From Thermotogota bacterium (GTDB lineage Bacteria; Hydrothermota; Hydrothermia; LBFQ01), in contig JAADDJ010000010.1 of the NCBI GenBank assembly GCA_013153965.1, forward strand, positions 17,443-81,442: a stretch of 64,000 nucleotides of DNA, in the 5' to 3' direction. The notes beneath the pieces are model-generated. The model saw only the letters and a program-made list of their open reading frames with translations, made no database searches and was not told where the DNA came from. This document shows positions 6,941 to 63,343 of the stretch, one piece after another. A program made the translations under genes and the position numbers. Position 1 is the stretch's first letter. Each line of letters starts with the position of its first letter.

Positions 6941-9900
6941 GTGCTCTGGGTGCTTCTAAACTACGAGGACTACTTTACGAGGCGGTTGATGGAGGAGACC
7001 TTCTCGTACGGCTACACCTACGACTCCAACAACGTCTATGGACTCTACAACTACTACGGGACGGAGGACACCGTCAAGGTCTTCTCAATAGACGAATTCT
7101 TCGGCCTCAACCTCATGTCCTACCTTCGCAAGACGACGGTAAAGGCCTATGACACGTCGGCGACGGAGGCCCTATCCGGACTCGTCCCGGATATAGAGGT
7201 TCCCGTCCAGATACCCAAGAGATGGCGGTTTCTGGGCGAGGGTGTGAGCAAGATAACCCTAAGGGGTGAGCAGACCATATCCATAGGCGGCTCCAAGGAG
7301 GATCTCCTCAGCCCCGAGGGCCAGAACCTCAACAGCCAGTATCAGGTGAGCAACATCCCGAGCATAAACATGAAGCAGACCTTGAACGTGGTCATAACGG
7401 GCCAGATAACGGATCGCCTGAAGGTGGAGGTGCGCCACAACTCCGAAGCCCTGCAGACGGATCAGGACCGGATACTCCTCGCGTACACCGGGACGGATGA
7501 CGATATAGTCCAGAGTCTCCAAGCCGGAGATATAGACGTTTCGGACTTTCCGAGTACCACCTACTCCTCCTTAGGTGCTGGGGCGGGATTGCTCGGATTG
7601 AAGGGCAGGTTCGCTCTCGGCCCCGCCAAGATCGTGGCGGTGGCAACGAAGGAGAGGGGTCAGAGCCAGACCAAGATATTCCGGGCTCAGTCGCAGGTGA
7701 TAACGGATACCCTCTGGGGGAGCGACTACATACGGGAGACCTTCTTCATGCTTCCCATAGCCCCCTTCATACCCCCCGGCGAGGATCCCAACGACTATCG
7801 GATTGAGAATCTGCTCCTCTTCTACAAGCCCCTCGTCCCGACGGGGAACACCTTCGTCTATGGTAAGGCCTATCACCTGATGGACACTTTGGGACTTATA
7901 ACCGACGACACCACCCGCTGCTTCGCGTCGGGCAGATTCGTCCAGATGGACCCCTCATCCTACCGGTTCTACACGGGGAGTGTGGTCCAGATAACGGATC
8001 CCCCGAACGCGTCCCTCTGGTGGCTGGGGGCCGTGTATAGGCTCGTGAAGTCGGATGGGAGCGACACGATAAACGTCGGGTACATCCCCCCCGCTCCGGA
8101 CAGCACGGATCCCATACGGATGCTCCTTATCAAGCTGGACAAGATGCGCTCCTCCGACACATCCCTCACGTGCGCCCTGAACATCAATCTTCTGGAGCTG
8201 AAGAACATATACTCACTTCCCTACCAGTTGGATACGAGCGTCAAGGACCTGACCTTCAACATATACCGCGACAACCCCACGACGAACGATTCACTGGCGC
8301 AGGACGGCATCAAATTCACGACGCTCCTCGGCGTTGACCCCGAGGGCGACGGCAAGATAAACGACATAGTCCCCGTGATCATCAACGGGGATACGGTGAA
8401 TTTCCGAGTTCTTGAGATATTCCCCGAGGGAGGGGGATACCTGATATTCCCGAAGTTCTGGCCCTTCGCCGACACCGTCCTGAGGGATAGGGACAGCATC
8501 ATATATCTGATGGACAGGGAGTACTGGAGGGAGTACCACCGGGAGAAGTACTACATGGTCTTCACATTCCGGAAACCCCAGAAGTTCATAAATCTGGGTG
8601 GGACCTTGATAGACGGCTCGGTTGAGGTCTTCAGGAATGGCCAGAAGCTTCAGGAGGGTAAGGACTATCGGGTGGATTACTCAAACGGCATCGTCCATTT
8701 CCTAATCCCAATAAACGAGACGGACGAGATACGTATAAACTACCGCTCCCTCGGCGCCCCTCTCGCCGAGAGCAGGGCCATTCTGGGTTTGGCCACCACC
8801 ATGGACCTGTCCGAGAACTTCAAGGTCACCCTCAACTACCTGTCAAAGTCCAGAGCATCCGCGTATCCGAGACCTCAATTCGGAAGCGAGCCCAACAGCT
8901 ACTCGGTCTTGGACGCCGGATTGACCTTCAACCACACCTTGGACTATCTCAACCGCTTCCTGAACTCCCGCACCCCCCTCAGCTTGGAGAAGAAGAGCGA
9001 ATTCACCTTGAACGGGGAGGTTGCGAGGTCCTTCCCCAACCCCAGCACGGTGGGCGAGGCTTACATAGACGATTTTGATAGGTTTGACGATAATCTGGAC
9101 AATTTGATCTGGGAGTACAGGAACTGGATACACGGCTCCCTGCCGTACCTTCCCGACTCCGTGAGGGCCGACACCGCCGTCCTCGCCAACCGCCAATCTT
9201 GGTACTCGGACCGTATGGCCGTGAAGGGGGACATACTGGAGATAACGGACGAGCAGGAGCGCACGGACCCCGTGCGGGTCATGAGGCTGATAGCCGAGCC
9301 CCGCATAGAGGGGGTCCCGAACTTCATGACCATAATGATGGGCTACAAGGAGGAGCAGAACTACAAGGAGAAGGAGTACGTGGAGGTATTCGCCCGAGGG
9401 CACGGGATAATCATATTTGACGTGGGAACCAACATACCGGAGGATGCGTACGTGAGGGCCTGCGACGGCAACTTCTACGGCCTCGGCCAGCTCAACACCG
9501 AGGACTTGAATCTGGACAACCAATTCACCGAGACCCGTGAGGACGTCGGTTTGGATGGCGTTCCCGGGGAGGATGGGACCTGCAATCCCGGCTCCGGCGA
9601 CTGGGGGAACGACGACTACACCATATCGGACCCGGCGAACGCGGACCCCTTCCTGATAAACAGGTACGAGGGAAATCACCACGAGGACTCGGAGGACCTG
9701 AACGGCAACTTCCAGCTGGACATGGCGGAGAACTTCTACTCCTACGTGATAGACCTGGACACCATGACACCCATATCCGAGAAGAACGGTTGGAAGCTCT
9801 TCAGGATCCCCCTGCCCAAACCCACCCGGGTCTATGGCAAACCGGCGCTTGACAGGATAGCATACTTCCGCCTGACGTGGTACGGATTTACCCGGACGGA

Positions 9901-12490
9901 CACCCTCTTCATATACCGGCTGGGGATAGGTGGAAGCCCTTGGATAAACGAGGGAGTCAAGGGGGATACCACGGATACGACCCAGTATCTGGCCATAAAC
10001 TTCGTCAGCAAGAAGACCACACCGGGATACGAGTACCCGCCGGGCGTTCAGGATAAACTCACATACGAGGGCATATCCATGGCCCTTCAGGACGAGGGAG
10101 CCATGTCCCTGCTCTACTCCGTCAATCCCGGGGCCTACGCTCTGGCCCGCAAGAACGTCGGTACCAAGTACAACTTCATAAACTACCGGAGCATATCCCT
10201 GTGGGTACAGGACAGGTCCGGCAGCTCTCCCACCATAGTTGTGAGATTCGGGAAGGATTCGCTCAACTTCTACGAGTACAGGCAGAGGATAACGGGCGAA
10301 GGTTGGCAGGCGGTCAAATTCTTCTTGGACAGTTTAGTCCTCTTCAAGGGGGACGAAACGTCGCCGGATTACAGGAGCAACGGGAGGTACGGTGTCAGGG
10401 GGAATCCGAGCATATTTGAGGTTGAATTCTTCTGGGTAGGTGTCGCCAACGACTCCTCCGAGCGGATAAGCGGGGAGCTCTGGGTGAATGAGCTTCGCCT
10501 GACGGACCCCGTTAAGACATCCGCCTACGCCGGGAACGTCTCCATGAGGTTCAACATATCCGACCTGTTTCAGCTTACGGGCAACGGTACGTTTGAGCAG
10601 ATGAACTTCGCCAGGTCGGCCACGAATCTTAGCCAGTACCAGACCCTCCGCTTCAATCTGAACACCACCTTCAACATCCACAGGCTGTTCCCCTCCTCTT
10701 GGGGCCTAAGCATTCCCTTCAACTTTAGCCACAACCTGAGCCAGAGGGTTCCCAAATTCAAGCCCGGTCTGGACGTTCCCATAACCTCGCCGGAGGAGAG
10801 ACGGTCCCTCACGGCCTTCTCCCGCTCAACCGCCTACGGCATATCCTTCTCCAAGAGGGGCTCAACCGGATGGCTGGGTAAGTGGTTCTTGGACCCGTGG
10901 AAACTCTCCCACAGCATGAGATACGACCTATCCAACATACCCGGTCAGAGCTACGACTCCACCGTGTCCCAGAATTACGGCATCCGGTACTCCTACAGGC
11001 CCACGGGCGAGTTCATGTTGGGCAATCGCCGGTACCGCTACCTTCCCACCTCCTACTCAATCTCCTACAACTACAGCCTGACCACCTCCTTCTCCAGAAC
11101 CATGGGTGCCATAACGCGCAGGACGGACAAGTACGGCAACCTCTCCGCCAGCATAAACTACGATCCCATCCCCGGCATATTCGGATTCGGGTACAGCATA
11201 TCCCGAAAGGGGGACTATCGCTACGACGAGCTCTTGAAGAGCTACGCGGACTCCCTTCTCGGGTTTGAGAGCCAATTCAGGGAGAACTTCAACTCCTCCC
11301 TGAACTTGAGGCGCCTGTGGATATTCTCCCCGTCCCTTACGTACCGACACGGGTACGCCGAGGACCGAAAACCCGAGAACGCCCTCACGGGCTTTGACGT
11401 CAGGGATATAAACGAGGACCTCAGTGTGGGCTTCACCCTGAACGTGGAGCAGGGGAGGCTGCTGTCGCAGATAGGGAAATTGAGGGATGAGAGTAAGGAT
11501 ACATCCCTATCCACGGCTGGGGCACTCCACACCTTCCTCTACGGCTTGGACAAGCTGGCCAACATATGGAGGAATACCCGCTTCTCCTACAGCTTCTCCC
11601 GCACATCCAGCTTCTACGCCGCCATGGGAAGGGCCAGTTGGGCCTACCGCTTCGGTTTGGCCCTTGATCCCGGCGTGATAATAACCGACACCCAACGCTC
11701 CAACTGGAGGGAGACCCACTCCTACGACCTATCCACGGACCTGAACATCTCCGCGCGCCTGCGACTCTCTCCGAGATTCAACTACAGCCGGGACCTCACG
11801 GATAACCAGACCCAGCGGATACTTCGGGAGACTTGGAGATTCCCGGACTTCGTCCTGAGCGGACGACCGATACCCATCATCTCCCGCTGGAAGTTCATCT
11901 CATCGTCGGACTTCACCTTCAACTATTCGGACGAGAGGAGCACCACATCCTATCCCCTCTGGGTTCCCACGGGTACGGACACCGTGAGACCGAGGACAAC
12001 GCGCTTCACGAGGACCATAAACCTGTCTCCGAATTTCACCCTCAAGAACGGTACGGGTCTGAACCTCTCCTACACATACACCAACTCCCGAACTCACGAG
12101 ATATACTCCTCCATGAACATAGAGCGAATATCCGTTCAGAACACCTACGAGATAGGTCTGAGCCACACCTTTAGCGGATTCTCCGGCATCCGATTGCCGT
12201 GGAAGAAGGATAGGCTCCTCTCCCTAAAGAACCGTCTGACCCTCTCGGCCAAGTACTCCGCGAGCAGCGGCACGGACATAACCATAAACCACACCCTCGC
12301 GGACTTCGGGAACAGCGTGGATACCCTCTCAAGGCGGAAGAACAACAACCTGACGGTGAGTGCCACCTACCAGTTCAGCAACGCCGTGGATGCGACCTTC
12401 AGCTACATATACAACTTGAGCGGCGACTACGAGGGGGGAATATTCACCCGCAAGAATCAGTTGAGGGCGGACATCCGCATAAGGTTCTGA
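6941..12490 (+). CDS. Giant outer-membrane beta-barrel protein, SprA/Sov (T9SS translocon)-like
   Basis: 1849 aa; S/T/N/Y-rich alternating beta-strand composition throughout; C-terminal aromatic residue (..IRIRF) typical of OM beta-barrels; two T9SS-CTD cargo genes in the same window; GTG start 1 nt after preceding stop; no signal peptide. Confidence 0.55.
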   Translation: MLWVLLNYEDYFTRRLMEETFSYGYTYDSNNVYGLYNYYGTEDTVKVFSIDEFFGLNLMSYLRKTTVKAYDTSATEALSGLVPDIEVPVQIPKRWRFLGEGVSKITLRGEQTISIGGSKEDLLSPEGQNLNSQYQVSNIPSINMKQTLNVVITGQITDRLKVEVRHNSEALQTDQDRILLAYTGTDDDIVQSLQAGDIDVSDFPSTTYSSLGAGAGLLGLKGRFALGPAKIVAVATKERGQSQTKIFRAQSQVITDTLWGSDYIRETFFMLPIAPFIPPGEDPNDYRIENLLLFYKPLVPTGNTFVYGKAYHLMDTLGLITDDTTRCFASGRFVQMDPSSYRFYTGSVVQITDPPNASLWWLGAVYRLVKSDGSDTINVGYIPPAPDSTDPIRMLLIKLDKMRSSDTSLTCALNINLLELKNIYSLPYQLDTSVKDLTFNIYRDNPTTNDSLAQDGIKFTTLLGVDPEGDGKINDIVPVIINGDTVNFRVLEIFPEGGGYLIFPKFWPFADTVLRDRDSIIYLMDREYWREYHREKYYMVFTFRKPQKFINLGGTLIDGSVEVFRNGQKLQEGKDYRVDYSNGIVHFLIPINETDEIRINYRSLGAPLAESRAILGLATTMDLSENFKVTLNYLSKSRASAYPRPQFGSEPNSYSVLDAGLTFNHTLDYLNRFLNSRTPLSLEKKSEFTLNGEVARSFPNPSTVGEAYIDDFDRFDDNLDNLIWEYRNWIHGSLPYLPDSVRADTAVLANRQSWYSDRMAVKGDILEITDEQERTDPVRVMRLIAEPRIEGVPNFMTIMMGYKEEQNYKEKEYVEVFARGHGIIIFDVGTNIPEDAYVRACDGNFYGLGQLNTEDLNLDNQFTETREDVGLDGVPGEDGTCNPGSGDWGNDDYTISDPANADPFLINRYEGNHHEDSEDLNGNFQLDMAENFYSYVIDLDTMTPISEKNGWKLFRIPLPKPTRVYGKPALDRIAYFRLTWYGFTRTDTLFIYRLGIGGSPWINEGVKGDTTDTTQYLAINFVSKKTTPGYEYPPGVQDKLTYEGISMALQDEGAMSLLYSVNPGAYALARKNVGTKYNFINYRSISLWVQDRSGSSPTIVVRFGKDSLNFYEYRQRITGEGWQAVKFFLDSLVLFKGDETSPDYRSNGRYGVRGNPSIFEVEFFWVGVANDSSERISGELWVNELRLTDPVKTSAYAGNVSMRFNISDLFQLTGNGTFEQMNFARSATNLSQYQTLRFNLNTTFNIHRLFPSSWGLSIPFNFSHNLSQRVPKFKPGLDVPITSPEERRSLTAFSRSTAYGISFSKRGSTGWLGKWFLDPWKLSHSMRYDLSNIPGQSYDSTVSQNYGIRYSYRPTGEFMLGNRRYRYLPTSYSISYNYSLTTSFSRTMGAITRRTDKYGNLSASINYDPIPGIFGFGYSISRKGDYRYDELLKSYADSLLGFESQFRENFNSSLNLRRLWIFSPSLTYRHGYAEDRKPENALTGFDVRDINEDLSVGFTLNVEQGRLLSQIGKLRDESKDTSLSTAGALHTFLYGLDKLANIWRNTRFSYSFSRTSSFYAAMGRASWAYRFGLALDPGVIITDTQRSNWRETHSYDLSTDLNISARLRLSPRFNYSRDLTDNQTQRILRETWRFPDFVLSGRPIPIISRWKFISSSDFTFNYSDERSTTSYPLWVPTGTDTVRPRTTRFTRTINLSPNFTLKNGTGLNLSYTYTNSRTHEIYSSMNIERISVQNTYEIGLSHTFSGFSGIRLPWKKDRLLSLKNRLTLSAKYSASSGTDITINHTLADFGNSVDTLSRRKNNNLTVSATYQFSNAVDATFSYIYNLSGDYEGGIFTRKNQLRADIRIRF

Positions 12491-56819: not shown

Positions 56820-57149
56820 CTACTCGGGTATCTCGTCCCTCACGTCCTCGTGGTCCTTGTACTCCTCACTCTGGAGTACGGAGGTTATGAAGTCGTCAAT
56901 CTCCCTCTTGGTCAGGAAGACGCCGGCGAGGAGTTTGCCCGTGTAGTGATTGTTCTTGATCTCCCAGAACATGTAGAACTGGGGGAAACGCTCCTTCAGC
57001 TGCTTGTAGGCTATACCGTACTTGCTCGGCTTCTTGTAATTCTGCTCTATGAAGAAGTGCTTCTCATCCACCTCTATCAGGTGGAGGATGGCTCCCGTCT
57101 TCGTCTCTACCAGCTTCCACTTTAAGGGACGCTCTTCCAGTACTTTCAT
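56820..57149 (-). CDS. Hypothetical protein
   Basis: 109-aa ORF 3 nt upstream of tsaC; no recognised motif. Confidence 0.4.
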   Translation of the reverse strand: MKVLEERPLKWKLVETKTGAILHLIEVDEKHFFIEQNYKKPSKYGIAYKQLKERFPQFYMFWEIKNNHYTGKLLAGVFLTKREIDDFITSVLQSEEYKDHEDVRDEIPE

Positions 57150-57188: not shown

Positions 57189-57881
57189 CTATCCGAAAAG
57201 TCTAAAGAGAGCCACCATCAAGCCGGCCAGGGCGACCATCTGACCCACCCAGAAGACGAACATCCATCTGATTATGTCGGCCCTCAACCTTCCCATCTCC
57301 CCGTACAGATTTGAGCGTAGGCTCTCAACATCGCCCTTGAACTCCGTACGTAGGCCTTCAATCCTCTCCGCCATCTCCGTCCGCAGACTCTCAATATCAC
57401 CCTTCAACTCCGCACGTAGGCCTTCAATCCTCTCCGCCATCTCCGTTCGCAGGCTCTCAACATCGCCCTTCAACTCCACACGTAGGCCCTCAATCCTTTC
57501 CGCCATCTCCGTCCGCAGACTCTCAACATCACCCTTCAACTCCGCACGCAAACTCTCAATATCACCCTTCAACTCCGTACGTAGGCCTTCAATCCTCTCC
57601 GCCATCTCCGTTCGCAGACTCTCAACATCGCCCTTCAACTCCGCACGTAAACTCTCAATATCACCTTTTAACTCCGCACGTAAGCCTTCAATCCTCTCCG
57701 CCATCTCCACCCTCAGTTTCCCCATCTCCTCCGCCAGGCGTCGTGCGAACCTCTCCTCCAATATCTCAAGCAACTGTGCCTTCGTATCCTCCTGAATCTG
57801 CCGCAGCACATCAACGAGAGCCTCACTACCGTCATCCCCCAGTTTCTCCCTCAGAACCTTTGGGACGGTTATCAGAGGCAT
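57189..57881 (-). CDS. Tail-anchored coiled-coil protein with 12 hendecad repeats (DUF1640-like)
   Basis: Repeats xEMAERIEGLR / xELKGD(I/V)ESLR x12; C-terminal TM RWMFVFWVGQMVALAGLMVALFRLFG. Confidence 0.55.
   Translation of the reverse strand: MPLITVPKVLREKLGDDGSEALVDVLRQIQEDTKAQLLEILEERFARRLAEEMGKLRVEMAERIEGLRAELKGDIESLRAELKGDVESLRTEMAERIEGLRTELKGDIESLRAELKGDVESLRTEMAERIEGLRVELKGDVESLRTEMAERIEGLRAELKGDIESLRTEMAERIEGLRTEFKGDVESLRSNLYGEMGRLRADIIRWMFVFWVGQMVALAGLMVALFRLFG
57312..57710. repeat. Tandem array of ~12 near-identical 33-bp repeats (coding; hendecad protein repeats)
   Basis: Read directly: units such as ctcaacatcgcccttcaactccgcacgtaggcc / ttcaatcctctccgccatctccgtccgcagact recur with few substitutions. 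Confidence 0.8.
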
Positions 57882-57901: not shown

Positions 57902-58972
57902 TCAAGCCTTTCTAAAGCAGATGAAGACCACCGTGCGATAGTACGGGGCACTCTCTCCAACCCCAACCTCACCTCCGTGTATCTGCGCTATCTTCTTGAC
58001 CAAAGTTAGGCCTACACCCCATCCCCTCTGCTTGGTTGAGAAGGAACGCTTGAATGCCTTCTTGAAGCCTTCCCTATCAAACCCTTTTCCGTTGTCCTCA
58101 ACCTCCACGCAGACCTTCCGTCCCTTAACCTTGAACCTCACCACGACCTTGGTGGCACCCGCCTCGGCCGAGTTCTTGACGAAGTTCTCTATGGCCCACC
58201 CTATGAGCTCCGGATCCCCCAGAACCTTCACATCTTCGCATTCGCATAGGATCTCCAGATTTTTGTACTTCCTCCGCATCTCCTCCAGAACATCCATCAC
58301 CACCTCCCGCAGGTTAGTCTCAACGAGCTGGGGCTCACCTCCGAGCTTGGAGAATCGGCGAAGTATGGACGTCAGTCTGTTCAGGTCCCGTTTCATACCC
58401 TCAACGGCCTCCGGTGGCAGCCTGTCCTTGACCACCTCATACCACCCGTGGAGGGAGGATATGGGCGTGGCCAGCTGGTGAGCCAACCCCTTGGCGAACC
58501 CCGCCCAGAACTCAGAATATTCATACCTCTCCGACATGTAGGCCGCGTAGAAGAAGAGAAGGGAGATGGTGAGGATCCCCAGAAACAGGAAGACGTTTAT
58601 CCAGCGCAGCCAACGGGTGTAGTGGGGATAGTCGTACAGGAGCTCTCCCATCTTCCGACCGTGGTAGGTTATATCCTCCTTGAAGCGGAGCCGCCCTATC
58701 TCCGATTCGGATATGTTCTTCACCACCCGAACCTTCCCGGAGTTGTCCAGCAGGGCTATGGGGAAGTCTATATCCCGCGTAACGGAGCGGAGTTTGTTGT
58801 ATATCTCTCTGTCGGAGAGGGAGCTGATCAGGAGGGTTGAAACCAGAACCGACAGCGCCCTTGAGCTGCTCTTGGCATTCTGCTCCAGCTTATTTACGAC
58901 CCAGAAGGAGAGGGCCATACCGGAGAGTGTCAGGACCCAGAGGAGGAATAGGAATACGAAGCGGGGTTTCAA
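57902..58972 (-). CDS. Transmembrane sensor histidine kinase (HisKA + HATPase_c)
   Basis: Two TM helices flanking a ~100-aa extracytoplasmic loop; H-box GLAHQLATPISSL; G-boxes DNGKGF and GWGVGLTLV; start set at TTG overlapping the upstream stop (TTGA) with GGAGGG 9 nt upstream. Confidence 0.8.
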   Translation of the reverse strand: MKPRFVFLFLLWVLTLSGMALSFWVVNKLEQNAKSSSRALSVLVSTLLISSLSDREIYNKLRSVTRDIDFPIALLDNSGKVRVVKNISESEIGRLRFKEDITYHGRKMGELLYDYPHYTRWLRWINVFLFLGILTISLLFFYAAYMSERYEYSEFWAGFAKGLAHQLATPISSLHGWYEVVKDRLPPEAVEGMKRDLNRLTSILRRFSKLGGEPQLVETNLREVVMDVLEEMRRKYKNLEILCECEDVKVLGDPELIGWAIENFVKNSAEAGATKVVVRFKVKGRKVCVEVEDNGKGFDREGFKKAFKRSFSTKQRGWGVGLTLVKKIAQIHGGEVGVGESAPYYRTVVFICFRKA

Positions 58973-60570
58973 AGGATGCCCTCCAGAACCTCCTCCAAGG
59001 ACCTGCCGAGGCGCAGCCGCAGGAGGGGCGCGATGAAGTACCGGAGTTTCATCCTGAGATCCTGCGGAGAGTCGGCGAATAGATACGCGTGGCCCACACT
59101 CCCCTTCAGCACCTCGTTGAGGCGGCGGAAGATGGCCACAGCCCATCCTATCTCATCTCGCGACCATCCCTTCCCCTCAAGATACCTCACGAGGGCATCC
59201 TCATCCGGCTCAAAGAATATGACGGGAAACCTGCGAAGGATGGCCTGATCCATCTGCAGGGTGCTAACATCCCTCTCGTTGAGGGTCCCGATGAAGAACA
59301 GGTTCTCCGGGAGCACAAGAGGGGATCCAGAGTAAGGGAGCAGGACGGGCTTCCCCCTATACTCAAGAGCGTAGAGTAAATTCCCGAGGATGGCGGGGAG
59401 ATTCCCCCGGTTCATCTCATCCAGAATCACGACGAACCTGTCCTCCGGGTTGGATTGGGCCTTCCGGACCATCCTCAAGAAAGGCCCCTCAACTACCTCA
59501 AAGGCCACACCGCCCTCCCCTCTGACCGGCCGAAGTCCCTCAACGAACTCCTCGTACCGCAGTGAGGGAGAAGCTTGGATAAGGATCCAATTCCTTCCCT
59601 CCCGTCCGGCCATCCTCTCGGCCACCCTGCGTGCCACGTGGGTCTTGCCCGTCCCCGGGGGGCCCATGAGAACGGCGCTCCCGTACCTGTAAAGCACGTC
59701 CATAACCTCCTCCTCCTCCGGCGACAGGTCGTCGGGTACGGTTATGACCGCCGTACCCTCATCCAACGATTCCAGCGTCTTTCTTATACGTCCGATGTCG
59801 GAGGCGTACCCCAAGAAGACGTAATCTCCGGCGTAGTCGGGCACCGTGCCCGAGACGAAGGGAGCGTTGGCCATCCGTCTATCCGTCCTGAACCGTGGGA
59901 GTCTTCCGGTGTAATCGGGCTTCAGCAGGAATATCCCGTAGCTCTCCCCGCCCACCTCTCTGGCGGCCAGGAGTTTTCCCCATCGGGTGTCCATCACCTG
60001 CCACTCCCCTTCAAGTCGCTCGTATCCACCCGCATCCATCTCGGCGATCAGATGCCTCAAAAATCCTTCCCTCCTCGGATATACCTTCGCGTAGGCCTTA
60101 CGCATATCCACCATCACCCTCACGAGATCCGCCGGCTCCGACGTGGTCCCTATCACCTCCAGATAGGCGAATCTATCCGGCTCAAGGGCCGGGTGCTTTA
60201 TCCGTCCTATGAGGGTATCCACATCACCGACGCGCTCGCCCTCATCGGAGAAACGTACGATGTAGCCGGAGCCGAGGAGCGATGAGAATGTGGTACGTAG
60301 CCAATCGTCCCCCATCTCCTTCAGGATGGGTTTGTGGGGGACGGCCGCCCCATCGGGAGAGTAGAATCGCAAGATCCAAACGGCCTCCCTCCCCCTTCTC
60401 ATGAACAGGATGTGGGGAAGTACGCCCGGGAATAGGGCACTCCGGATCACCACCCCATCCTCCGTGGGAAACAGGTCAAAAAGTCCCACCGAGACTTTCC
60501 TATCCTCATACACCGCCCCCTCGCCGGTGATCCCGGTGAGGAATCTTACGACCTCCCTTATGTCTTCCAC
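58969..60570 (-). CDS. McrB-family AAA+ (AAA_5) NTPase with ~300-aa uncharacterised N-terminal domain
   Basis: LMGPPGTGKTHVARRVAE (cf. E. coli McrB GPPGCGKTFVARRLA), VVILDEMNRGNLPAILGNLLYALE (cf. ILDEINRANLSKVFGEVMMLME), FFIGTLNERDVS...AILRRF (cf. IIGLMNTADRS...ALRRRF). Confidence 0.7.
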   Translation of the reverse strand: MEDIREVVRFLTGITGEGAVYEDRKVSVGLFDLFPTEDGVVIRSALFPGVLPHILFMRRGREAVWILRFYSPDGAAVPHKPILKEMGDDWLRTTFSSLLGSGYIVRFSDEGERVGDVDTLIGRIKHPALEPDRFAYLEVIGTTSEPADLVRVMVDMRKAYAKVYPRREGFLRHLIAEMDAGGYERLEGEWQVMDTRWGKLLAAREVGGESYGIFLLKPDYTGRLPRFRTDRRMANAPFVSGTVPDYAGDYVFLGYASDIGRIRKTLESLDEGTAVITVPDDLSPEEEEVMDVLYRYGSAVLMGPPGTGKTHVARRVAERMAGREGRNWILIQASPSLRYEEFVEGLRPVRGEGGVAFEVVEGPFLRMVRKAQSNPEDRFVVILDEMNRGNLPAILGNLLYALEYRGKPVLLPYSGSPLVLPENLFFIGTLNERDVSTLQMDQAILRRFPVIFFEPDEDALVRYLEGKGWSRDEIGWAVAIFRRLNEVLKGSVGHAYLFADSPQDLRMKLRYFIAPLLRLRLGRSLEEVLEGIL

Positions 60571-62402
60571 TATCTGACCGTAACCGATTTGGCCAAGTTG
60601 CGTGGCTTGTCGGGGTCAACGCCCCTCAAGACGGCGGCGTAATATGCCAAGAGTTGCAGCGGGACTATGGTGATTATGGGGGTTAGGAATTCGGGAACTT
60701 CGGGGACGTAGATGGTGTGGGTGGAGAGCTCGGCCATCCTCCTATCCCCCTCGGTAATGACGCTTATCACCTTACCCCCACGGGATACGACCTCGTGGGT
60801 TGAGCTTACGGTCAGCTCGTAGGCGGAGGACCTCGGATTTATGACCACAACCGGTAGGGCGTTATCAACTAAGGCCAGCGGCCCGTGCTTCATCTCGCCC
60901 GCCGCGTAGCCTATGGCGTGTATGTAGCTGACCTCCTTGAGCTTCAACGCCCCCTCAAGAGCCGTGGGATAGTTTATCCCTCTACCGAGGAACATGACGT
61001 TCGTCGTCTTGTATATGCGCTCGGCTATGTGCCCTATGTGGGCATCCAGCGCCAGAACCCTCTCCACCTTCTTGGGGAGCGCCTCCATGTGCCTCATCAT
61101 CCCCTCAAGCTCATCCTCCGTCAGGAACCCCTTCACGTGGGCCAGCTCCAAGGCGAGCAACGTCAGAACCTGCACCTGCGCCACGTAGGCTTTGGTGGAG
61201 GCCACTCCCACCTCTATCCCCGCGTTGGTATATATGACGTAATCGCTCTCCCTCGCTATGGTACTCTCGGGCCTATTGACTATGGCCAGAACCTCCAGTC
61301 CATGCTTCTTCGCGTACCGTAGGCCGTCTATGGTATCCGCCGTCTCACCCGACTGGCTTATGGCCACGACCAACGTCCTTGAATCCGTAGCCAACTTCCG
61401 ATAGGAGAATTCGGAGGAGTACTCAACCTCCGTCGGTATCTCCGCGTAGGTCTCCAGCAGATATTTCCCCACGAGGCCGGCGTGGTAGGAGGTTCCGGCC
61501 GCCTCAATTATTATGCGGGTCTTATTCAGCAGGAGCTTTCGCAGGTTCAGGTCCCGCAGGAGCACGGGTTTGAGGGAGCGCACGTACCTCTCTATGTTCG
61601 TGGAGAGGACCTTTGGTTGCTCGTATATCTCCTTGAGCATGAAGTGGGGGTACGGCCCCTTCTCCGCATCCTCCTCCGTGTAGTCCAGAATCTTCGCCTC
61701 CTTCTCTATCGGTTTCCCTTGGAAATCGTAGAATTCAACGGAGTTCTGTCTGACGAAGGCTATCTCACCGTCATCAAGATAGACCACCCTCTTGGTGTGG
61801 GGGAGGATGGCGACGGGGTCGGAGGCGAGGATGTTCTCCTCCTCTCCTAACCCCACGACCAGGGGGCTATCCTTCCGCACGCCGATTATCAAGTCCGGAT
61901 CATCCCTGAATAGTATGGCCAGAGCGAAGGAGCCTTCAAGTTGCTTCACGGTCTTGACCAGCGCCTCTATCAGCTCCCCCTCCCGTAGATAGTTGTACTC
62001 CAGAAGGTTTGCTATGACCTCCGTGTCCGTCTCGGAGCTGAAGGAATAGCCCTGCTGCCTCAACATCTCCCTAAGGTAGGAGTAGTTGTCTATTATCCCG
62101 TTATGCACCACGGCGAATATGCCCCTCTGCGAGAGGTGAGGGTGGGCGTTCGTATCGCAGACGCCTCCGTGGGTGGCCCAGCGGGTGTGAGCTATGCCTA
62201 TGGTTGATTTGGGGAGAGGGCTCTCCGCGAGGCTGTTTATGAGCTCGTGTATCTTGCCGGCTCTCTTGCGCACTATGATGTTATTCTTCACCAGCAGGGC
62301 TATGCCGGCCGAGTCGTATCCCCTATACTCCAGCTTCTGCAGCCCCACCGTGAGAACGGACTCCGCGTCCTTGCGTCCGACGTATCCTACTATCCCGCAC
62401 AC
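60570..62402 (-). CDS. glmS: Glutamine--fructose-6-phosphate aminotransferase
   Basis: MCGIVGYVG N-terminal nucleophile; two SIS domains; C-terminal ...TVR; 610 aa. Confidence 0.95.
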   Translation of the reverse strand: MCGIVGYVGRKDAESVLTVGLQKLEYRGYDSAGIALLVKNNIIVRKRAGKIHELINSLAESPLPKSTIGIAHTRWATHGGVCDTNAHPHLSQRGIFAVVHNGIIDNYSYLREMLRQQGYSFSSETDTEVIANLLEYNYLREGELIEALVKTVKQLEGSFALAILFRDDPDLIIGVRKDSPLVVGLGEEENILASDPVAILPHTKRVVYLDDGEIAFVRQNSVEFYDFQGKPIEKEAKILDYTEEDAEKGPYPHFMLKEIYEQPKVLSTNIERYVRSLKPVLLRDLNLRKLLLNKTRIIIEAAGTSYHAGLVGKYLLETYAEIPTEVEYSSEFSYRKLATDSRTLVVAISQSGETADTIDGLRYAKKHGLEVLAIVNRPESTIARESDYVIYTNAGIEVGVASTKAYVAQVQVLTLLALELAHVKGFLTEDELEGMMRHMEALPKKVERVLALDAHIGHIAERIYKTTNVMFLGRGINYPTALEGALKLKEVSYIHAIGYAAGEMKHGPLALVDNALPVVVINPRSSAYELTVSSTHEVVSRGGKVISVITEGDRRMAELSTHTIYVPEVPEFLTPIITIVPLQLLAYYAAVLRGVDPDKPRNLAKSVTVR

Positions 62403-62469: not shown

Positions 62470-62865
62470 ATGAGAATGGAGCTGCAGCGCATCGTTGAGA
62501 AGATAATGGATGAGATAGACGACGCCGAGGCCGTCCTGTTCGCCACGACGGATGGACTGCCGGTGGTATTTGAGAGCCGCTTCAACCCGGACATCGTTGA
62601 GCGGTTGGCGGCCCTCTCCGCCATGTTGTACTCCGTGTCCAACCGAGCGGCCAATCTGGCCGAGGTGGGGGAGTTTGAGAGCCTTGAGCTGACGACGACC
62701 TACGGGAAGATGTTCATATACCACACCGCGCAGGACCTGTTCCTGACGATACTGACCAGCAAGGAGACGAACATCGGTCTGGTCCATGTGGTCGTTAAGG
62801 ATATATGTCGCAGGTACAGGGAGGTGCTGCGCCATGAGATTGGAGAGGATAATGGAGCTTCTTAA
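62470..62865 (+). CDS. Roadblock/LC7 (MglB-like) domain protein
   Basis: AVLFATTDGLPVV...YGKMFIYHTAQDLFLTILT pattern typical of Roadblock/LC7. Confidence 0.7.
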   Translation: MRMELQRIVEKIMDEIDDAEAVLFATTDGLPVVFESRFNPDIVERLAALSAMLYSVSNRAANLAEVGEFESLELTTTYGKMFIYHTAQDLFLTILTSKETNIGLVHVVVKDICRRYREVLRHEIGEDNGAS

Positions 62866-63343
62866 AAACTCCCTCCACATAGATGAGCCTCTGCCTCCGG
62901 CCCTCGTGAAGCACCGGGAGACCATAATGGGTTGGTTTCCCGAGCTGATGGAGGCCATAGCACGGAGGGTTGAGGGCACCGATGAGTACGTGAAGGAGGC
63001 TCTCCCCAAATTCGTCAAGGCGATGGTGATGGGGCAGACGGCCGACCTGTGGGAGAAGCTCTACAAAGAGAGCCAGAAGACCGCCTCCCACGGAATAACC
63101 CCCGAAAAGATAACCGTGGCTGGGACCGTCCTTCTGGAAGAGCTGGCCAAGAGGGCCATCCGCTCCTTCCCTCCCGACGAGGCCGAGCAGATAGTCACCT
63201 ACTTCATACGGATGATAGCCGGAGGCGTCGCGGTTAGGGTCAGCGGCTACAGGGCCCTGAGCAAGGAGTTCCTCGGCGTATCCGACAGCCTCTTTGAGAG
63301 GATAGAGCGCCTTCAGGCGAAGGGGTTGCGTAAGGAGGAGTAG
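62831..63343 (+). CDS. Hypothetical alpha-helical protein (possibly globin-like)
   Basis: 170-aa ORF; start placed at ATG with AGGGAGGTG RBS, overlapping the Roadblock gene by 35 nt. Confidence 0.4.
   Translation, partial: AMRLERIMELLKNSLHIDEPLPPALVKHRETIMGWFPELMEAIARRVEGTDEYVKEALPKFVKAMVMGQTADLWEKLYKESQKTASHGITPEKITVAGTVLLEELAKRAIRSFPPDEAEQIVTYFIRMIAGGVAVRVSGYRALSKEFLGVSDSLFERIERLQAKGLRKEE

Follow-up and report, generated by a model that had tools for sequence, protein, structure and literature searches.

Layout of the glmS locus and its gene junctions

McrB is regarded as a dedicated GTPase motor of restriction nucleases. Here, we describe a gene for an AAA+ nucleoside triphosphatase (NTPase) of this known family, in which the McrC-less architecture and a new N-terminal domain are the new part. 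The gene lies in a stretch of 64,000 nucleotides (nt) from a Thermotogota bacterium (contig JAADDJ010000010.1, positions 17,443 to 81,442), hereafter the window, between glmS and the gene of a sensor histidine kinase. The three genes and their parts are listed below (aa, amino acids; coordinates are those of the window, and invariance of the AAA+ motifs was judged in a 16-sequence family alignment).

60570..62402 (-): glmS, glutamine-fructose-6-phosphate aminotransferase, 610 aa (Pfam GATase_6/7 and two SIS domains)
60568..60572 (-): glmS/ATPase junction TAGTG, read from the sequence
58969..60570 (-): McrC-less McrB-clade AAA+ NTPase gene, 533 aa, GTG start
59716..60570 (-): family-specific N-terminal domain, aa 1-285, with invariant motifs and a confident structure model
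58972..59715 (-): McrB-type AAA+ module with helical lid, aa 286-533, assigned by Foldseek and phmmer
59641..59664 (-): Walker A, GPPGTGKT, aa 303-310; G303, P304, G306, T307, G308, K309 and T310 invariant
59401..59421 (-): Walker B and following residues, DEMNRGN, aa 384-390; D384, E385, N387, R388, G389 and N390 invariant
59269..59280 (-): NxxD consensus loop N-E-R-D in place of sensor 1, aa 431-434; N431 and D434 invariant
59227..59235 (-): tandem arginines RRF, aa 446-448, McrB-type trans arginine finger pair; R446, R447 and F448 invariant
58969..58984 (-): ATPase/kinase junction with TTGA overlap and GGAGGG Shine-Dalgarno sequence, read from the sequence
57902..58972 (-): two-transmembrane sensor histidine kinase, 356 aa, TTG start (Pfam HisKA and HATPase_c)

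The glmS gene is the first of a conserved trio, glmS-ATPase-kinase, whose members overlap at both junctions. Its stop codon TAG (60572-60570) and the ATPase start codon GTG (60570-60568) have one base in common. A preliminary description of this DNA, made from the sequence alone, had these two genes overlapping as ATGA; the overlap itself stands, with the actual sequence being TAGTG, the start codon GTG and the overlap a single nucleotide. The GTG start is backed by homologues that begin at the equal position (MxDIREVVPFLE). At the second junction, the ATPase stop TGA (58971-58969) overlaps the kinase start TTG (58972-58970) to form TTGA at 58972-58969, with the GGAGGG Shine-Dalgarno sequence at 58984-58979, 6 nt 5' of the TTG, just as had been described. 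A mechanical list of open reading frames (ORFs) extends the kinase to 414 aa from an ATG at 59146; we rejected this longer form as an artefact of ORF extension, since the N-termini of orthologues favor the TTG at 58972.

Both junctions recur among the window's closest relatives, which make up clade A of the family (see below). The one-base glmS/ATPase junction was also found at loci L006, L007, L008 and L094, and the 4-nt ATPase/kinase overlap at the same four loci and at L095. The window glmS is 83-88% identical to the gene upstream of the ATPase in L001, L006, L007 and L008. As judged from these sequences, the packing of the trio in the window's clade amounts to co-expression and translational coupling. 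The previously proposed transcription unit of glmS, ATPase and kinase is plausible but need not be limited to three genes. The same-strand gene string runs at least six genes past the kinase with gaps of 3-39 nt (a coiled-coil membrane protein, DUF7132, Sua5/TsaC, a GT1 glycosyltransferase, SppA and a TPR protein), and the unit could extend well past the trio. Promoter and terminator scans of the locus returned nothing above chance and are thus uninformative on operon boundaries. Neither a glmS ribozyme nor another RNA was found by an Rfam scan near the locus, and the GC content across it showed no anomaly.

In the kinase, hydrophobic segments at aa 3-27 and aa 121-147 enclose an extracytoplasmic domain of approximately 95 aa; a HAMP domain is lacking. 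Pfam matches to HATPase_c (2.9e-16) and HisKA (1.5e-4, below the HisKA cutoff) complete the picture of a two-transmembrane sensor histidine kinase given in the preliminary description, and the NCBIfam resemblance is AtoS/CreC-like. Across 12 orthologues, no variation occurs in H165 of the H-box, N267, DNGKGF or GWGVGL. On these sequence features, the protein is predicted to be an ordinary, catalytically intact sensor kinase. It resembles orthodox HisKA/HATPase_c kinases in its two transmembrane segments, H165 and the N, G1 and G2 boxes, but differs from orthodox two-component kinases in that no response regulator is adjacent to it, and a phmmer search with CheY detected no receiver (REC) domain in ORFs of at least 60 aa anywhere in the 64-kb window.

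An McrB-type motor without McrC

Sequence and structure comparisons agree on the affiliation of the ATPase module. Pfam assigns AAA_5 to aa 300-448 (1.2e-16). In a phmmer search against all PDB sequences, the best matches were McrB chains (1.8e-25 to 1.1e-24; 1.8e-25 for Escherichia coli McrB, EcMcrB, and 8.8e-25 for T. gammatolerans McrB, TgMcrB), followed by ClpC as the next-best AAA+ protein at 5.6e-05; the 60 best matches listed (E<=1) included no MoxR, NorQ or CbbQ chain. The sole significant NCBIfam match was McrB PRK11331 (1.9e-23, 82.9 bits), with no match to MoxR, NorQ, CbbQ or GvpN. Its equivalog cutoff of 637 bits lies far above the score obtained, so E. coli McrB and the protein are not orthologous. 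An AlphaFold model of the full-length protein (predicted local distance difference test, pLDDT, 79) retrieved E. coli McrB 6hz4_A as the best Foldseek match (E 3.9e-18, TM-target 0.72-0.75), aligning 268-281 columns to the EcMcrB AAA+ chains of approximately 290 residues; the McrB structures compared were E. coli 6hz4/6ut6 and T. gammatolerans 6ut3-6ut7. The model includes a helical C-terminal bundle (H457-521), and hydropathy analysis of the ATPase indicated no hydrophobic segments.

Taken as sequence and model evidence, these matches place the module in the McrB clade and not with MoxR/NorQ, as the preliminary description had supposed when it likened the AAA_5 module to EcMcrB. That description had also offered an AAA_5 chaperone-like protein as an alternative. 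Such a MoxR/NorQ/CbbQ/GvpN-type AAA+ chaperone, not derived from McrB, would share the Pfam AAA_5 domain, which is common to both groups, and could account for a faint bpMoxR match and for the secondary structural matches to NorQ (1.7e-11) and CbbQ, which trail at about 1e-11 to 1e-10. However, bpMoxR reached 18.8 bits against a cutoff of 27, AAA_3 is absent, McrB leads the PDB search at 1e-25, and the protein bears McrB signatures in its NxxD loop, in Asn387 and in the tandem arginines of RRF. In the same line, no VWA-domain partner (NorD/CbbO/BatA-like) was found among the annotated neighbors in the window or at the relatives' loci examined. We consider the chaperone alternative effectively refuted.

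All four motifs quoted earlier are present (GPPGTGKTH at aa 303-311, ILDEMNRGN at aa 382-390, FIGTLNERD at aa 426-434 and AILRRF at aa 443-448) and align with functional elements of McrB. Family members have H, Y or F directly after Walker A (H311 in the window protein), where McrB has its base (guanine)-stacking aromatic, the role of which has been reported (10.1101/2020.01.30.927467). In the phmmer alignment, DEMNRGN pairs with EcMcrB DEINRAN, which makes N387 the equivalent of EcMcrB N282, and RRF pairs with EcMcrB RRRF, matching the tandem trans-acting arginines described for McrB (10.1101/2020.01.30.927467). The NERD loop aligns to EcMcrB MNTADRS, and members of the basal clade C/D read MNTTDRS or MNTADRS at this position; an NxxD loop replacing sensor 1 is a McrB signature as defined in PMC11090510. 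The invariant residues are those that experimental work has assigned to the McrB catalytic site and to its McrC-responsive hydrogen-bond network (10.1101/2020.01.30.927467; PMC11090510). By alignment, the full McrB catalytic signature set is intact across the family. Because the complete machinery is kept, the protein most likely still forms a nucleotide-hydrolyzing hexameric ring, which from its sequence would probably use GTP.

Complementarily, we searched for the nuclease partner. A hidden Markov model (HMM) of McrC was built from five McrCs with Pfam McrBC scores of 1e-33 to 3e-52, encoded directly 3' of the closest ordinary McrB homologues, and recovered McrC in all five untrained control loci. 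Applied to six-frame translations of the 64-kb window and of 14 family loci, it returned nothing at E<=10, in agreement with the earlier statement that no McrC-like gene flanks the ATPase. Among the nearest ordinary McrBs, five out of six tested have a PF10117 McrC directly 3'; at the Gemmata locus L017, the ORF after the McrB match has no Pfam McrBC match, and an McrC-like ORF lies just beyond.

The N-terminal domain, which had been called unrecognizable, matched no known family in any of the searches made. Pfam, NCBIfam and PADLOC gave no match to aa 1-285. Modeled alone, these residues form a compact alpha/beta structure (pLDDT 86.6; predicted template modeling score, pTM, 0.83), for which a Foldseek search of the PDB found nothing at E<0.2. 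Its profile, run with HMMER against 1.84 billion representative proteins, matched seven, each of them either a protein of 520-560 aa with the family's architecture or a piece of one; with its matches confined in this way, the domain is family-specific. Invariant motifs are VPxKPxL (aa 77-83), RE (aa 204-205), which sits inside a largely conserved S-R-E-V-G stretch, and NxPxxxGxxxD (aa 235-245).

DUF2461 is another domain found fused to McrBs, and the YktB/PF0168 structures presumably belong to one fold family with it, which is why a profile comparison was made. The DUF2461-McrB fusions, for example Gemmata P0045 (from a different Gemmata strain than locus L017), likewise place an uncharacterized alpha/beta domain directly N-terminal of an McrB-type motor. 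There is, however, no sequence relationship, with hhalign giving 0.3% probability for the N-terminal domain against the DUF2461 profile, and no Foldseek match. Against YktB/DUF1054 and PF0168-like structures (2a8e, 1yb3 and 3mqz), 135 of the 285 residues align. A literature search on DUF2461, DUF1054 and YktB provided no functional information.

Family descent and gene neighborhoods

Full-length homologues fall into about 20 clusters. The members that could be located in genome records come almost all from metagenome-assembled genomes labeled candidate division WOR-3 or Candidatus Caldipriscus, the exceptions in label being two 'uncultured bacterium' entries and one 'Thermotogae bacterium'. 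In a neighbor-joining tree computed from the AAA domain alone of 120 McrB-like sequences, the family is monophyletic and forms a clean clade of 19 sequences with the following subdivisions (percentages are identities to the window protein).

Clade A (the window's own): 61-65%; sister group of clade B
Clade B: 42-47%; sister group of clade A
Clade C/D: 31-33% or lower; basal, with an MNTxDRS loop and a weak McrB_lid match

Kinase orthologues of clade A are 68-79% identical to the window kinase and those of clade B 50-55%, a gradation like that of the ATPase clades, which fits vertical inheritance of both genes. No defense genes were found in the housekeeping contexts examined, in the window or at the relatives' loci. 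The ATPase gene has the character of a chromosomal gene passed on vertically, not that of a mobile defense gene. Within clade A, the ATPase (61-64%) diverges faster than glmS (83-88%) and the kinase (74-79%), and this divergence is concentrated in the N-terminal domain (49-57% identity).

Clade A keeps glmS-ATPase-kinase in at least five distinct relatives (L001, with equal gene order, L006, L007, L008 and L094); at L095, where the contig ends within the upstream ORF, the overlapping ATPase-kinase pair is seen. Flanking genes vary, with MlaE, Uma2/PurH or a small membrane protein upstream of glmS and with RtcB, CutA/MazG or the window's coiled-coil gene 3' of the kinase. As a side observation, L007 carries three tandem copies of a two-gene pair 3' of the trio (L007:10758-12961; proteins of approximately 121-140 aa and 126-131 aa). 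The copies have near-identical N-termini and, in the ORF listing from which alone they were judged, the look of a nucleotidyltransferase/HEPN-type toxin-antitoxin system.

Clade B is arranged differently. At all seven loci, the ATPase is followed by a protein of approximately 640 aa, PBP2 and a lipoprotein, whatever stands upstream. The two clusters of this clade have the following coordinates.

L002:7001-13064: McrB-like ATPase, approximately 640-aa protein, PBP2 and 334-aa lipoprotein-like protein
L086:6108-8074: kinase/REC-CheB cluster, found also at L087, L088 and L089

The order of the ATPase cluster is repeated in L005, L009, L010 and L011, and L090 and L091 end within PBP2. PBP2 has PBP_dimer and Transpeptidase domains, and the 334-aa protein a faint SBP_bac_8 match. 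The 640-aa protein, with no Pfam match and neither signal peptide nor transmembrane segment by hydropathy, could be the real partner of the ATPase. It looks propeller-like, and its 'VYPNPA' tail recalls sorting domains of the type IX secretion system.

The clade-B ATPase never adjoins the kinase. The orthologous kinase, in which the catalytic motifs are invariant, is encoded elsewhere, in one case on the same 340-kb contig, and overlaps by four bases an upstream gene with Response_reg and CheB_methylest domains; fur and rpmE come after. A database search with this REC-CheB protein retrieved orthologues from clade-B-type sequences only. The regulator is preceded by a 315-aa protein without a Pfam match, and its pairing of a CheB-type methylesterase regulator with a non-CheA kinase is unusual outside chemotaxis clusters. 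At L093, which holds a distant homologue of the kinase, the 240-aa gene 5' of this homologue showed no similarity to the N-terminal domain or to REC-CheB. In clade C, the ATPase is flanked by rsmI and enoyl-CoA hydratase; 5.5 kb upstream lies a PBP2-like gene.

With the kinase decoupled in clade B and another context in clade C, the adjacency of motor and kinase is a clade-A feature. The coupling of an McrB motor to a kinase, put forward in the preliminary description as an architecture of its own, and its conservation after glmS are therefore borne out among the close relatives of clade A and fail in clades B and C. The link is confined to one sub-lineage and may be no more than co-expression, and the glmS-ATPase-kinase packing is not evidence for a general 'motor-kinase' machine.

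A narrower version, in which the clade-A ATPase and kinase form a genuine signaling pair, with the ring modulating the kinase or vice versa at the operon position of REC-CheB, appears improbable to us. The 4-nt overlap and the strong Shine-Dalgarno sequence are kept in every clade-A contig examined, the trio persists though its flanking genes differ, and both the missing REC domain in the window and the restriction of REC-CheB orthologues to clade-B-type sequences suit a pair of this kind. Two-component genes also accompany some McrBC operons of the NxD branch, systems that retain McrC (PMC11090510). Clade B, in turn, has both genes unlinked on one 340-kb contig, each with its other conserved partner, and the kinase sequence, including the sensor domain and the catalytic boxes, is conserved between clades A and B irrespective of the neighbor. 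Moreover, clade A consists of closely related genomes only, as the glmS identities indicate, so synteny within it is weak evidence, and the same-strand gene string goes well past the kinase. Together, these observations argue only weakly for a dedicated motor-kinase module.

Descent and neighborhoods bear equally on a second alternative, namely that the protein still serves in anti-phage defense or restriction, with a nuclease or effector that is located elsewhere, too diverged or contained in the novel N-terminal domain. The nearest relatives are indeed canonical McrBC systems, the invariant catalytic set includes the McrC-contacted residues, and PADLOC reports weak, AAA-only matches to restriction-type ATPases (best 1.3e-10). 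We nevertheless regard a defense role as very unlikely, given that McrC was found neither in the window nor at the 14 loci, the neighborhoods are of housekeeping type and the distribution is vertical and phylum-restricted, with no signs of mobility. The defense-type gene pairs of L007 are absent from the other clade-A loci and, judged as they were from the ORF listing, lend no support to a defense role.

Proposed role and remaining window genes

We consider it somewhat probable that the ATPase is a vertically inherited, McrB-derived NTPase co-opted for a non-restriction job, possibly related to the cell envelope and broadly PcdA-like. Under this proposal, a very small protein family, confined to the WOR-3 phylum as far as its members could be placed, would descend from the AAA+ GTPase motor that McrB provides to McrBC restriction enzymes and would have lost the McrC nuclease/activator partner from its loci. 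The usual DNA-reader domain would have been replaced by the family-specific alpha/beta domain of approximately 285 aa, and the restriction motor would now serve as a switch or remodeler driven by NTP, acting on a cellular target bound by that domain. The neighbors hint faintly at cell-envelope or peptidoglycan physiology, with glmS in clade A, PBP2 in clade B and the PBP2-like gene 5.5 kb off in clade C.

Compared with McrB itself, the family has kept the AAA+ core, for which McrB is the best sequence and structure match, the order of a variable N-terminal domain followed by the motor, an aromatic residue or histidine after Walker A, a DExNR Walker B, the NxxD loop and the tandem RR(F). It differs from McrB in that McrC is missing from operon and window, the N-terminal domain is unrelated to the McrB reader domains encountered in these searches, the loop of the window protein reads LNERD and not MNTADRS, and the gene is chromosomal, in a housekeeping context and vertical within one phylum.

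The takeover we propose would be similar in kind to that of PcdA from Staphylococcus aureus, an McrB-family protein co-opted for division-plane selection and nested among restriction McrBs, which is chromosomal, occurs in one lineage only and works without McrC (PMC10602043). The WOR-3 family is likewise an McrB-type AAA+ protein without linked McrC, lineage-restricted and chromosomal; a cell-wall or division role has been shown for PcdA and may apply to the family. PcdA, in contrast, has tandem EVE N-terminal domains, a degraded Walker A, has lost the Walker B glutamate and one arginine, and has no C-terminal helical bundle (PMC10602043). The WOR-3 family has a new N-terminal domain with no EVE match, intact motifs and, in the model, a helical lid. 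The two are analogues, not orthologues.

Several observations weigh against the proposed co-option. N387, N431 and D434, that is every residue McrC uses to stimulate McrB, are kept, which would also fit an unlinked or unrecognizable activator, and McrC, searched for in the window and the 14 loci, could be encoded elsewhere in these genomes. The McrB_lid domain PF28529 is absent from the precomputed Pfam matches of clade A and B members, with a weak match in clade C. The envelope link is weak in that it comprises three different neighbors in three clades, and compact genomes pack unrelated genes. Finally, an incidental role of the kinase sits uneasily with the survival of the trio through flank rearrangements in clade A and with the protein database search, which found no clade-A orthologue of the clade-B REC-CheB; a real relationship between ATPase and kinase within clade A could exist.

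A more far-reaching version of the co-option, which we think rather unlikely, would have the McrB motor domesticated at the base of WOR-3, or of part of it, as an active, McrC-independent envelope/peptidoglycan GTPase, in keeping with its linkage to glmS and PBP2. In the window's lineage, it would then have displaced the CheB-type regulator as the kinase's operon partner, giving rise to a kinase-AAA+ unit without a receiver domain.

The bacterial example that we found of an McrB co-opted for a cellular function is PcdA, in which the catalytic site has decayed. If true, a further McrC-less lineage that arose independently and retains a fully intact site would imply that an McrB ring works or is activated without McrC and that defense motors have been recruited repeatedly into core physiology. 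The analysis also brings to notice an uncharacterized domain of 285 aa with a confident fold prediction, and a function possibly linked to the envelope in a phylum that is uncultivated, rich in thermophiles and almost without known cell biology. The motor-kinase idea is of lower value, because the coupling is restricted to one shallow clade.

Further genes in the window are as follows.

57189-57881 (-): 230-aa coiled-coil protein with C-terminal transmembrane segment, directly after the kinase
56820-57149 (-): DUF7132 protein (4.6e-46), between the coiled-coil gene and Sua5/TsaC
62470-62865 (+): Roadblock/LC7 (MglB-like) gene (1.6e-06), divergent from glmS
62786-63343 (+): 185-aa protein without Pfam match, after the Roadblock/LC7 gene
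6941-12490 (+): very large ORF of 1849 aa

As called, the Roadblock/LC7 ORF shares 80 nt with the 185-aa ORF, and a wrong start is thus probable for one of the two. The coiled-coil gene, which is not conserved beside the trio in relatives, is built from 33-nt (11-aa) units arranged in higher-order tandem repeats of 66 and 99 nt (MAERIEGLRxELKGDxESLR), and its product matches the LA_3696 N-terminal family (1.3e-16) and the Pfam CCDC90-like family (3.5e-12).

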